From IMG/VR virus record IMGVR_UViG_2681813454_000001: DNA of 12,506 bases. The stretch is one strand, 5' to 3'. The stretch's first letter is position 1; every line of letters begins with the position of its first letter. The position numbers are program-made. Shown in pieces: positions 1,460-4,400 of the stretch. The stretch is from a virus (taxonomy: Duplodnaviria; Heunggongvirae; Uroviricota; Caudoviricetes).

Positions 1460-4400
1460 TAATTCTGGTCAACGACCAGTTGAGCGGATTCGCGTTTAAA
1501 CTCTGCGCTGAAATTTCTTTTTTTCATTATGGCACCTGTGTTGTTCTGAGGTGAGCATATCACCTCTGTTCAGGTGGCCAAATTCAGTAAACCACTTCAA
1601 ACTTAAATGGTCAGCAGCTTTATGGATTGTTAGTTGGTGGTGGCATCATAAACGCAGCAGTATTAGCGGGGATGCTAAAAACGGCTGCGTTTGTTGTTCC
1701 TGCTGCTGGTGTCGTAGGAGGAGCTGCGAAGGCATACGAAAGCCCTGTTATACGAAATGCCTTGTTACGTCTGGCAAATACGCCAAAAGGTAGCACAGCA
1801 TATGACAGAGCGATCAGTACGGTCACACAATCGCTCACCAGAGTCGCACAGGCATCACAAAAAGAAGCTCAATAACTGGCAGCCACGGATGGCTAATTTT
1901 TATTCTTTGATCTCGTCCACAGGTAAAGAAGAGCAATGGCAAGACAGGAAACAGAGAATAGATAACCTACCTCATATGGTGCGCCAAAAAAATTAGCTAT
2001 TGATACGGGCAAAAAAGCCGAAGCGATCAGAATTGAAAGGCAAAAAATAAGCCCAGTAACATAGTTTATTAAACTCTTAAATGAGAAACGTTTTGCTTGA
2101 TTTACGGTCTCAGCGAGTGATCGCTTAACGATGGATAAAAGCAAATAGATGGCGACAGTAGCTAATGCCCCTTTCCACCAGTCTGGATATAGTTTTGCGA
2201 CAATCAGCCCAAGGAAAACCATGATGACAGACTGAGCATTCACACCAACCTCCTTAGTTTTGCGCAGGATACCAGATGATGTATAGGAGTGGGAGTAAAG
2301 TTAGTCGGTGATAGAACGGTGGTTGCATAATGATATCACGTGACGTAAACTTATTGCGCATAGCGTGTATTCAATGGATGCATAGCTATTGATAATCTCC
2401 GATAAGAAGGAGGTTTGTATGAGCAATGAGACTAATGGGATTGATGAAATGTTTAGCTTGAACGCTGCCAAAGCTGGAGTCGCAATAGGTTTGCTATTAC
2501 AGCAAGCTTCTGCGTTCAGTTGTGAGGTGGTTGTTACTGATAACGTTCAGCACGCTTACCATCAATCCTCATTCAGCAGTGAACGGGCTAATGATGAGCT
2601 TCATGAGGCGGTGTCTTCGATTAAAGAATTGTCTCGAATGCTGAAATACGCTTATCGTGTTCTTGCAAACGCTACCGATGAGAATGTAGACAATGTGTTG
2701 TCTATCATTGAACCAGAAAAGTCTCGATTGATAGAGCATCAATTGAGAGGACTTGAAGGGGCAATGAAATCGGTATTCAAAGAAGCTTCTGCTGATTTTA
2801 AAGAGATCGCAAGAGATATCTATATCGTTGTTGCTGATGCCAGATCTGCCGTAACCAACCTGAATAGTCTTATTAAACAACGCTCATGTGTTCCGGTTGT
2901 TTTTGATAGTTCCGTAGATATGGCTGGTTTGCGTGCGCTTGCTGAGCACGGGACTCGTGTGTTTCACTCTGGTAACTTCCACTGAGGTAAAACATGCAAG
3001 TAACCGTGGAATATAATCAGGATAGTTTTGACTATTTTTTCTCCCCGTTTTTGTTGAGTTTCCTGATTTAAAACAAACACTTGTAGATGATTTTATCATC
3101 TACAAGTCTACGGGAACGTTGCCCAGCTATTTTGGCAGAGACACCTCTTATCATCGACCTCCTGATATTGAAGATGCAGGCCTTATGCACCTTCATTTAG
3201 CAATTGGTGAAAATAAATTTGAGCCAATAAAAAATGGCACAGATATCAGCACACCGCAAAAGTTGCAGTGGCATAAAACATCCAATACCGCTCTCGTTTA
3301 TGCACAAAATCTTTTTGATGAGAACAGGTATTCATTGATTGCTCTTTTTCATCCTGTAGCTCACATGTCTGCTAACAATCATAATAGAATGAGAGTGTTA
3401 GCAGGGTATGCGAGAGACTTTAGAAACACTATGTTTGACTAAACCCACCGTCAGGTGGGTTTTTTATAAGGAGTAATCATGATTTACCCATCAAACAACC
3501 CACCAGTTTGCCTGATTGGATGCCAGCCTTGCAGTTTTTATGGAATTAATTATGCCATGCTCAAGAGCCTTGTTAGCATCCAAAATGGTCGAGTCTGCTA
3601 TCAGGGATGCCCACCTAATATGGGTTCCGATGTCGATATTGAACGTCTCAACGAAGCGATCAAGATCGTTATCGAGGCATTTCCCGTACTCTCTCAATCT
3701 GGCATGGTCGGCGGCTGGGGAGGCAAAGCACCATAATAGAGGATGTAACAGGAATCTTGATAATGGGTTTGCGAAACGTTCTGAGCCAGCCAGGAAAACG
3801 ATATTAGCTATGGATTCAACATTGCTTATGTTGTGAGTTCTAACGGTAACAGGGAGTGACTTAAGAAAGTTATACGCAGTAAAGCCAGCAGCAGTTTCCC
3901 CTCCCTGACTTGATATATGGATATTTAATTCAGTTGCGCCTTGAGATAATGCGGTGAGACAGTGGTTCTGAAGTTGCCCAACAGTGGCAGTGTTAACAGG
4001 GCATAAGAAATGAATTGTGTGCAGCATTATTTTTCATCCTTAGCATACATGGTCTTTAGCGTCTCAAGTAGCGCCTCTTTGAATTTATCAGCTTCTTGCT
4101 GAGCAAATGACTCAACTGACTTTGGCGACCTATCTTCATCAATCGCGGCTTGCAAAATCATGACGATCTCGGAGTTAACAGAGCGACCATTTTTTGATGC
4201 TCTGACAGCAAGAGCCTCGCGTAAAGATTCAGGGATTCTTACCGTAGTTGGAGAAATTGACACACCCTTTGCCATATAACACCTTTGGTATTCAATTTGA
4301 TAGCAAAGTGTATGCAAAAAAATTTTGACTAGATATACTCACTTTGCTATCTTTTGTATTCGAAAAGAGTTGTTTGCGTGGAGGGTAACATGGAGAAAGA

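Follow-up and report, generated by a model that had tools for sequence, protein, structure and literature searches.

The stretch of DNA analyzed here (the window below; 12,506 nucleotides of IMG/VR record IMGVR_UViG_2681813454_000001) comes from a P22-like prophage of E. coli K1. Its immI region encodes, next to the maintenance repressor gene mnt, a 178-aa protein that is a real member of the ClpP superfamily, with the ClpP fold and an intact Ser-His pair. The gene for this protein and the 3' end of mnt make up a discrete mosaic module, with the terminator hairpin at its left, that fills the P22 orf59a slot and so is the second cistron after mnt in this lineage. The explanation that we favor, by somewhat more than an even chance, is that the product is an atypical, gate-less ClpP of the kind known from Pseudomonas plecoglossicida ClpP1 (PpClpP1), carried as cargo by temperate phages, likelier to stack on host ClpP than to form a homotetradecamer, and bringing a benefit of the lysogenic-conversion type. 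The features concerned are collected in Table 1.

Table 1. Features of the immI region in the window, with positions counted from the first nucleotide.
Feature	Position	Strand	Basis
Hairpin AAACCCACC-UGAC-GGUGGGUUU between convergent ClpP-like and YafO-like genes	3441..3462	.	Folding
Gene for 178-aa N-terminally truncated ClpP-fold peptidase subunit	3491..4027	-	PF00574, 9uxt_A match, AF2 model, dN/dS
TAATG overlap, mnt stop/ClpP-like start	4025..4029	-	Direct sequence reading
AAGGA Shine-Dalgarno of ClpP-like gene	4037..4041	-	Direct reading; within final mnt codons
mnt-like RHH maintenance repressor gene, 82 aa from ATG	4027..4275	-	Pfam Arc, PDB 1MNT, RefSeq WP_001051911.1
Divergent mnt/arc control region	4276..4389	.	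Pant-like promoter and perfect inverted repeat
arc-like repressor gene	4390..4542	+	Pfam Arc 9.6e-12; RefSeq CDS
sar antisense RNA	4708..4774	-	Rfam RF00262, 83.9 bits (gathering score 43), full-length match
ant antirepressor gene	4775..5677	+	P22_AR_N 5e-45, P22_AR_C 2.7e-28, phrog_245 3.5e-97, RefSeq CDS

The original prediction, made from the sequence alone, had read the ORF (ATG 4027-4025, TGA 3493-3491) as a compact ClpP-like peptidase with the Ser and His positions in conserved context, and both parts of that reading stand. A profile search matches the protein to PF00574 (CLP_protease) with E = 2.2e-11 and 44.4 bits, above the cut-off of 20.2, aligning residues 24-165 with positions 37-180 of the 182 in the profile. 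Structure prediction of the monomer, which had been suggested as a check, gives the ClpP fold: the AF2 model has a pLDDT of 93, and its TM score is 0.93 against 9uxt and 0.83 against E. coli ClpP. Ser72 and His95 align properly with Ser97 and His122 of E. coli ClpP, and they are invariant in alignments of 31 and of 60 homologues. The gene has a dN/dS of 0.08 against an 80%-identical copy, which points to strong purifying selection; because of this value, and because the TAATG junction with mnt is kept in 36 copies, the ORF is not a chance one. RefSeq annotates both CDSs, the mnt-like one and the 178-aa one, identically in E. coli ATCC 11775. The enterobacterial prophage clade of these proteins has an NWWV motif at the C-terminus.

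E. coli ClpP (1TYF/1YG6) shares the fold and the active-site context at 27% identity, whereas the 178-aa protein is without about 25 N-terminal residues and has Ser for Asp171. It begins at strand beta1, at about E. coli ClpP residue 25-27, and has neither the axial loop nor helix alphaA. The predicted lack of the N-terminal axial segment is thus borne out, the Pfam match also starting only at profile position 37, and a longer N-terminus is ruled out because there is an in-frame TGA at 4036-4034, 9 nt 5' of the ATG. The Asp171 position is occupied by Ser146, and the column holds S, A or P among the enterobacterial and Pseudomonas members. The IGF/ADEP pocket of E. coli ClpP is lined by Y60, Y62, F82, I90, M92, F112, L114 and L189, for which the 178-aa protein has N35, H37, S57, H65, I67, F85, N87 and K164, polar in 6 of the 8 places. 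By this comparison, most of the hydrophobic pocket for the ClpX/ClpA IGF loops is absent. With the equivalog model TIGR00493 the score is 19.2 bits, where the cut-off is 308.6, and the other NCBIfam ClpP models are far below theirs too. In annotations the gene is routinely mislabelled "ATP-dependent Clp protease proteolytic subunit" or "head maturation protease".

The nearest characterized relative is PpClpP1 (PDB 9UXT; E = 1.6e-35, 41% identity), with residues 3-175 of our protein aligned to 9uxt_A at TM 0.93 and an rmsd of 1.7 A. The two have the same architecture over the full length, being about 180 aa long with a start at beta1, Ser and His kept, a non-acidic residue at Asp171, and a polar surface in place of the canonical IGF pocket; they differ in the third triad residue, which is Ser146 here and Pro151 in PpClpP1. 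Assignment to the short ClpPs of this type agrees with the best matches in the representative library, which are 180-190 aa long and align from residue 2-5. PpClpP1 purified from E. coli is a homotetradecamer; the available text of the article does not mention E. coli ClpP (PMC12900304). That particle has an ungated pore of 42.7 A and a peptidase activity 13-fold below that of the canonical paralogue, with Ser and His both essential, and a ClpX pull-down was without PpClpP1; joined with the canonical ClpP2 it makes a stable heterotetradecamer, with ClpX binding and a slightly higher activity (PMC12900304). ClpP2 of P. aeruginosa is an analogous accessory subunit, forming a hetero-oligomer with the housekeeping ClpP and tuning ClpXP assembly (PMC13056064); a role of this kind is the working model that we propose for the 178-aa protein. 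PaClpP2 itself is a chromosomal paralogue and not mobile. Only for PpClpP1 is it known that the tetradecamer has a dilated pore, that ClpX is not bound, and that a heterotetradecamer forms with housekeeping ClpP; the same may by analogy apply to the phage protein.

The RHH protein encoded upstream had been called Mnt-like and placed in an immI-like region; it proves to be a true Mnt homologue in a complete immI, with arc, sar, and ant all present. Its ORF, with an SD-like AAAGGTG 5' of the ATG and a TAA stop at 4029-4027, encodes a Pfam Arc match (9.5e-11 by profile search) and aligns with PDB 1MNT at 2.3e-6 over residues 12-73. To P22 Mnt the identity is 36% over 74 aa (E = 7e-14), including the C-terminal helix, so that the N-terminal RHH and the C-terminal oligomerization helix of Mnt are both there, and the gene is divergent from arc-sar-ant. 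Between mnt and arc, a consensus scan places a Pant-like promoter at 4325-4353 on the plus strand, and around it lies a perfect 12-bp inverted repeat, GATAGCAAAGTG/CACTTTGCTATC, at 4299-4310 and 4340-4351, which is a candidate Mnt operator. The arrangement parallels that of P22 Pant/Pmnt with Oarc/Omnt. Upstream of mnt on the minus strand, where a Pmnt promoter would be expected, the sigma-70 consensus scan flagged none.

The stop/start overlap that had been predicted reads exactly as TAATG at 4029..4025, both genes being on the minus strand, and this 1-nt overlap is kept in 36 of 36 intact immI-linked copies with an intact upstream mnt. The AAGGA Shine-Dalgarno lies 9 nt upstream of the ClpP-like ATG. 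At the other end, the hairpin between the convergent genes folds at -18.7 kcal/mol (z -2.5), and the same 42 nt as this hairpin region are labelled "terminator" in the annotation of phage Emek; a consensus scan for terminators passed over it. On the left, similarity to other phages sets in at 3441, 3444, or 3469. The hairpin is likely both a bidirectional terminator and the left edge of the mosaic module.

The extent of the module can be read from its distribution. Across about 40 immI-linked loci from two phage morphotypes, window positions 3469-4067 are the sole common stretch, holding the ClpP-like ORF and the last ~13 mnt codons, in which its ribosome-binding site lies. At least 6 unrelated Mnt DNA-binding alleles, including a true P22-type Mnt, are joined to a ClpP-like gene that is 97-100% identical among them. 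All of these alleles end in ...YGKDEK, YAKDEK, or YGKDDK, the sequence encoding the AAGGA motif, and the ClpP-like gene is always accompanied by the final ~40 nt (~13 codons) of mnt. The Ant alleles joined to this gene are likewise very different, and no co-variation with Ant or Arc alleles was found, the linkage being to the mnt 3' end only. Phage E212 has kept the ClpP-like gene with its mnt destroyed. Several copies of the ClpP-like gene are disrupted or truncated (loci L091, L093, L094, and L106), so the gene is dispensable. At least 1000 contigs carry the exact 178-aa protein, and a 910-nt mnt/ClpP-like query (3441-4350) finds matches in 172 of 5426 complete E. coli genomes, including K1/ST95 extraintestinal pathogens and the E. 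coli type strain; a tblastn search of an isolated-phage collection returned six records only, all near-identical.

A survey of gene neighborhoods had been proposed to ask whether pairing with an RHH gene recurs, and the answer depends on identity. Every copy at 80% identity or above sits within an immI cassette (mnt-clpP/arc-sar-ant) of a P22-like or lambdoid phage, and there the pairing recurs. At 50-75% identity, the homologues stand alone on the opposite strand in other prophages, without an RHH gene, placed between Rz/endolysin/holin and terminase genes or between tape-measure and baseplate-hub genes; at least one has its own terminator. No recurrent partner gene was found beside these lone homologues, whose unrelated neighbors include Ivy, a DUF4411/IrrE pair, an invertase, and proteins without a Pfam match. 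Pseudomonas and Massilia orthologues lie in ordinary chromosomal contexts, the Pseudomonas ones adjoining KGG stress-protein genes. The RHH pairing is a positional property and not one of the family.

We infer that the gene is prophage-expressed cargo, its product most likely an accessory ring with host ClpP, by the following steps. The ClpP-like gene would be co-transcribed and translationally coupled with Mnt, and since Mnt is required in the lysogen to keep ant off, the ClpP-like protein would be made there too. In P22 the corresponding slot is expressed from the prophage. It would form heptameric rings that by themselves could not dock an AAA+ unfoldase, and these would act as a homotetradecamer or, more probably, stacked on a host ClpP heptamer. 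The mixed particle would have one ATPase-binding face and one open face, and the output of ClpXP/ClpAP would be altered. The gain for the phage would lie in lysogenic conversion, through host proteostasis, lysogeny stability, or exclusion of other phages, and not in virion maturation. Extrapolation to a hetero-oligomer with E. coli ClpP starts from a Pseudomonas protein that is 41% identical and whose own partner has evolved along with it. What the protein does in Pseudomonas might not hold for the phage copies, because the Pseudomonas orthologues are chromosomal, beside KGG genes. A bolder form of this explanation, for which we would claim only a minor share of the probability, is that a lysogenic-conversion gene for a gate-less ClpP ring, spread among Enterobacterales by temperate phages, rewires host ClpXP/ClpAP to the advantage of the prophage. 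The product, from the Mnt maintenance operon or from a promoter of its own, would dock on host ClpP heptamers, and either lysogeny would be stabilized or superinfecting phages would be excluded through degradation of early or ejected proteins. If true, a phage would for the first time be seen to carry an accessory ClpP ring, and this would be a new viral route to host-protease takeover.

Among the functions floated in the original prediction, that of a cargo gene fits the genomic evidence best, and that of a subunit poisoning host ClpP is the least supported of the three; a role in defense may hold but draws no support from the evidence. A cargo protein might also act without host ClpP, as a stand-alone homotetradecamer serving superinfection exclusion or anti-phage defense, for example as an open-pore peptidase acting on unfolded or ejected phage proteins. 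The location of the gene in the hypervariable "ant moron", beside the place of sieA in P22, would suit this, as would the relatives at classical moron sites on the opposite strand and the ungated 42.7 A pore of PpClpP1 (PMC12900304). We nonetheless think it unlikely. In PADLOC-DB 2.0, no model matched the 178-aa protein at E ≤ 0.1 or gave a hit for its neighbors, and the ordinary chromosomal settings of the Pseudomonas and Massilia orthologues speak against this reading. PpClpP1 alone is a weak peptidase that degraded neither casein nor GFP-ssrA (PMC12900304); to work by itself, the phage protein would thus have to have some unknown substrate.

A poison or decoy subunit, co-assembling with host ClpP or titrating it so as to lower ClpXP/ClpAP activity and protect phage proteins, is a less probable proposal again. 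It would make sense of the missing gate and ATPase-docking pocket, and a mixed particle would have half the docking faces, but a pure decoy has no need of an invariant Ser and His or of strong purifying selection, and the PpClpP1-ClpP2 mixed complex is more active, not less, both with and without ClpX (PMC12900304).

The coupling to an RHH gene brings up a pair resembling the type II toxin-antitoxin systems, in which the RHH protein would be the antitoxin and the ClpP-like protein the toxin, since an RHH gene that comes first with its stop overlapping the next start is the standard layout of such pairs. This is very improbable and we reject it. What stands in the antitoxin position is a full-length Mnt, which faces arc-sar-ant, one ClpP-like gene is joined to the several Mnt alleles with different DNA-binding domains, and co-occurrence of the partners is not obligate, the RHH partner being absent from most homologues (the lone prophage and chromosomal ones) and mnt being destroyed in E212. 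Toxicity was not reported for the Pseudomonas protein expressed alone in E. coli (PMC12900304).

The head-maturation (prohead) protease named in the phiv205-1 annotation has a best PHROG match in its favor (phrog_94 "head maturation protease", 7.3e-21) and a hit to NF045542, but can scarcely be credited and is rejected on score (49.3 bits against a cut-off of 120), on context (immI, on the strand opposite the late operon, or between tail genes L and K in siphophages, with chromosomal orthologues that have no phage genes nearby), and on nearest relatives (viral ClpP-like structures at most 25% identical, cellular ClpP1 41%). Capsids of the P22 type, moreover, mature without proteolysis. The ClpP-related head-maturation proteases of NF045542 and phrog_94 are, like the 178-aa protein, phage-borne with a ClpP fold and no ATPase-docking gate; unlike them, the 178-aa gene lies outside the head module, on the opposite strand, and without a scaffold or capsid fusion.

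With a gate-less ClpP accessory ring still the explanation we prefer, what is new is the genomic setting, namely the immI cassette and the cargo status, while the atypical ClpP type is already known from PpClpP1. Searches of the literature on ClpP with prophage, moron, defense, immI, CUS-3, or Mnt turned up no paper on a short ClpP borne by phages. Many E. coli regulators, proteins important to phages among them, are under the control of ClpXP and ClpAP, whose substrates include lambda O, Mu repressor, RpoS, and LexA fragments. A mobile ClpP paralogue that is expressed from the prophage, is blind to unfoldases and perhaps stacks on host ClpP would be a compact means for a prophage to tune host proteolysis. 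The PpClpP1 paper is the one biochemical study of the family, and it makes no mention of phages or prophages (PMC12900304); linking its structure to a phage cargo gene makes for a directly testable question in a tractable host.

Two of the comparisons with known systems, those with the Pseudomonas gene and with P22, concern the genomic setting. On the Pseudomonas chromosome the gene is syntenic with KGG and DUF6555 genes, whereas the 178-aa gene is phage cargo coupled to mnt. P22 and the window are alike in that mnt is divergent from arc-sar-ant, between the ejection-protein gene 16 and the tailspike gene, a region in which SieA and Mnt are prophage functions (PMC10883804, PMC2629481). The P22 layout is mnt-orf59a-terminator followed by sieA with its own promoter, and the pairing found here falls outside it, as had been predicted: orf59a encodes 59 aa with no relation to the ClpP-like protein and follows mnt after a gap, where the window has an overlap. 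Unlike in P22, the C-terminal half of Mnt in the window is part of the ClpP-linked module. The P22-type immI or "ant moron" region is hypervariable, with ten types in sixteen genomes (PMC2629481), and the ClpP-like gene is an additional defined entry among its contents.

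The 178-aa protein exceeds the Pfam CLP_protease cut-off (44.4 bits against 20.2, matching from profile position 37), which agrees with the original prediction of a ClpP-like peptidase. It falls far under every cut-off of the NCBIfam ClpP equivalog models, and its 49.3 bits against a ClpP-related head-maturation protease model do not reach the cut-off of 120. The AlphaFold2 model, with 31 homologues as input, is confident (pLDDT 93.1, pTM 0.89), and superimposes on E. coli ClpP with TM 0.83 at 20% identity. In an alignment for which the E. coli sequence was checked against 1TYF, the N-terminus corresponds to strand beta1, at about ClpP residue 25-27, and a longer one is ruled out by an in-frame TGA upstream of the ATG, at 4036-4034, so the N-terminal axial segment is absent as supposed. 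The Ser and His positions proposed to be kept are Ser72 and His95, aligning with Ser97 and His122, and neither has an exception in any homologue examined. At the position of Asp171 there is Ser146. The IGF-loop/ADEP pocket of E. coli ClpP is lined by Y60, Y62, F82, I90, M92, F112, L114, and L189; the aligned residues here are, in the same order, N, H, S, H, I, F, N, and K. The C-terminus (residues 174-178) reads NWWV(xC), nearly invariant across the enterobacterial prophage clade in the family alignment and with its Trp kept in Pseudomonas as well (..QW/NW); it is a short beta-strand in the model and may serve in contacts between subunits or in docking. The protein is a ClpP fold with the Ser-His pair intact and without the gate, the Asp, or the hydrophobic docking pocket; it is no orthodox ClpP.

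Among solved structures, the closest by far is 9uxt_A (E = 1.6e-35, TM 0.93, rmsd 1.7 Å, 41% identity), which is ClpP1 of Pseudomonas plecoglossicida, PpClpP1 (PMC12900304). PpClpP1 is a homotetradecamer without the N-terminal region and with an axial pore of 42.7 Å; of its Ser-His-Pro "triad", only the first two residues are essential (PMC12900304). Its peptidase activity is 13-fold below that of the canonical paralogue, it does not degrade casein or GFP-ssrA alone, and ClpX does not pull down with it, but the stable heterotetradecamer that it forms with the canonical ClpP2 does bind ClpX, and its activity is somewhat higher (PMC12900304). Neither "phage" nor "prophage" occurs in the text of that paper. 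The 178-aa protein joins this recently characterised kind of short, gate-less ClpP paralogues. The Pseudomonas orthologues (183 aa) are chromosomal, with no phage genes nearby; in the Pseudomonas loci L137-L142, the gene at 8001-8552 consistently has small KGG-motif stress-protein genes and a DUF6555 gene on its flanks. There are hints here of a stress or stationary-phase regulon, a membership not discussed in the published study (PMC12900304).

The overlap of the mnt stop and the peptidase start as TAATG, on which the proposed operon was based, is exact on reading the sequence. RefSeq calls both CDSs identically in the type strain E. coli ATCC 11775, where the 910-nt stretch spanning them (3441-4350) is 100% identical. 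The upstream gene was thought to encode a Mnt-like ribbon-helix-helix (RHH) repressor, and its 82-aa product matches Pfam Arc (9.5e-11) and PDB 1MNT (2.3e-6, residues 12-73) and has 36% identity to P22 Mnt across 74 residues, C-terminal helix included; by these comparisons it is assigned as Mnt. The immI-like setting is also borne out, with arc, sar, and ant all found opposite mnt, and the immI region of this P22-like prophage is complete. The perfect inverted repeat has a third, degenerate copy at 4261-4275, overlapping the mnt start codon. These repeats are candidate Mnt/Arc operators; their arms are spaced by 29 nt, whereas the P22 operators are annotated as more compact.

Features of the mnt/ClpP-like gene junction and the immI region
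Feature	Coordinates	Strand	Description
ClpP-like gene	4027..3491	minus	178-aa ORF; ATG 4027-4025, end 3491
Shine-Dalgarno AAGGA of ClpP-like gene	4041-4037	minus	within last mnt codons, 9 nt ahead of ATG
mnt	4275..4027	minus	82-aa ORF; stop TAA 4029-4027
Perfect 12-bp inverted repeat GATAGCAAAGTG/CACTTTGCTATC	4299-4310 / 4340-4351		flanks Pant-like promoter; divergent control region
arc	4390-4542		faced by mnt
ORF of 57 aa			faced by mnt
sar antisense RNA	4708-4774		full-length match, Rfam 83.9 bits (gathering score 43)
ant	4775-5677		faced by mnt

The rest of the window has features of its own. A YafO-family toxin gene (2993-3442, plus strand) is convergent with the ClpP-like gene; ATCC 11775 has a 149-aa version, relative to which stops break the 5' end here and leave just a 107-aa ORF (3119-3442). 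The gene upstream of it (2389-2985, plus strand) belongs to phrog_8416, and its product, with no Pfam match, is not recognisable as a YafN-type antitoxin. At 10135-10463 there are 47 perfect tandem AAGACTC copies followed by an acyltransferase ORF (10774-11109); this is the repeat through which neuO is phase-variable in K1 prophages of the CUS-3 type. As 47 is not divisible by 3, neuO is predicted to be phase-OFF, and the repeat marks the window as CUS-3-like, a prophage from a K1 lineage of E. coli. Two identical 1,250-bp IS3-family elements, IS911-like by length and ends, lie at 350-1599, adjoining the apparent truncated end of the ejection-protein region, and at 6764-8013, cutting the tailspike gene into 5778-6797 and 7988-9976. 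In ATCC 11775 neither is present, and an IS21 element instead precedes the tailspike gene. The prophage is probably defective.

We collected 132 related loci. Copies with at least 80% identity (about 40 loci) all occur in an mnt-clpP/arc-ant cassette, which lies between ejection gene 16 and the tailspike gene where the phage is P22-like, and between tail genes L and K where it is a lambdoid siphophage. Common to all of them is only 3469-4067 of the window, namely the ORF and the last ~13 mnt codons; the stretches of similarity end on the left at a hairpin (3441-3462), and on the right inside mnt (4067, 4108, 4119) or at the arc end. At least 6 unrelated Mnt DNA-binding alleles, the genuine P22 type among them, are joined to the same tail ...TLKTMYGKDEK plus TAATG, and the Ant alleles vary as widely. 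Hence the ClpP-like gene is a discrete mosaic module, which brings its own ribosome-binding site inside the mnt 3' end and has no tie to any particular repressor or antirepressor. Other enterobacterial prophages carry homologues at 50-75% identity, in genera such as Klebsiella, Pantoea, Proteus, Citrobacter, Serratia, and Pectobacterium. The homologues mapped stand alone, each on the opposite strand from the late genes, in the Rz/endolysin/holin-terminase interval or the tape-measure/baseplate-hub interval, one with its own terminator, and comparison of neighbours found no recurrent partner gene. Recurrent RHH pairing, as raised by the original prediction, thus holds for the copies at 80% identity or more and fails at the mapped 50-75% loci, where no RHH neighbour is present.

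Among 1.84 billion representative proteins scanned, 8 clusters reach E <= 1e-30 and 524 reach E <= 1e-10, mostly of 180-190 aa and aligned from residue 2-5. The exact protein is in at least 1000 contigs, and the 910-nt query matched in 172 of 5426 complete E. coli genomes. A dN/dS of 0.08 against an 80% copy indicates strong purifying selection. The isolated P22-like Escherichia phage E212 (MZ043897; locus L003) has the gene intact at 5020-5560, unannotated in the record, with mnt reduced to a 41-aa remnant in which just the ...YGKDEK tail survives; arc was not detected, and the phage shows in nature the ClpP-like gene standing without a repressor neighbour. Several immI-linked copies in IMG/VR prophage contigs (L091, L093, L094, L106) are cut at about residue 56-62 or have lost the start, so the gene is dispensable for prophage carriage. 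In L094, the halves meet at ~3840-3843 with mnt ~1.4 kb off, which suggests splitting by an insertion.

The ClpP-like gene is, then, a discrete cargo module that overlaps mnt, is followed by a hairpin, and has no dedicated partner gene. Following the P22 paradigm, transcription would be driven by Pmnt, and the protein expressed in the lysogen. From PpClpP1, and by analogy with P. aeruginosa ClpP2, the analogue for an accessory-ring model (PMC13056064), the most likely reading is that the product forms heptameric rings that do not recruit ClpX/ClpA themselves, and that would stack on host ClpP and so modulate ClpXP/ClpAP. A role specific to the immI regulators is unlikely because one gene is joined to many different Mnt and Ant alleles and is found by itself as well. 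We regard a stand-alone exclusion or defence peptidase as rather unlikely, since its genomic location is the only positive point and PpClpP1 is inactive on proteins. Less probable still is a subunit that poisons host ClpP, given that the catalytic residues are invariant and the mixed PpClpP1-ClpP2 complex gains activity. A toxin-antitoxin pair is highly improbable, as the partners do not co-occur, and a head-maturation protease, contradicted by genomic context, is the least credible, even though phage phiv205-1 (MN340231; locus L001) has an identical gene at 5051-5587 labelled "head maturation protease", transferred from a Streptococcus phage. RefSeq genomes use "ATP-dependent Clp protease proteolytic subunit"; both names mislead because the protein is without ATPase-docking elements and outside any head module. 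A short gate-less ClpP carried by prophages as mobile cargo, in this case fused to the Mnt maintenance operon, appears to be undescribed in the searchable literature.

The P22 order is gene 16, sieA with its own promoter, a terminator, orf59a, mnt, Pmnt/Pant, arc, sar, and ant. The place of orf59a is taken in the window by the ClpP-like gene, the second cistron behind mnt, and the two genes show no relatedness on comparison, so the pairing of mnt with a ClpP-core gene does lie outside the canonical P22 immI layout. In P22-like phages this stretch is the hypervariable "ant moron" (PMC2629481), which in P22 carries sieA, a prophage-expressed exclusion gene (PMC10883804).
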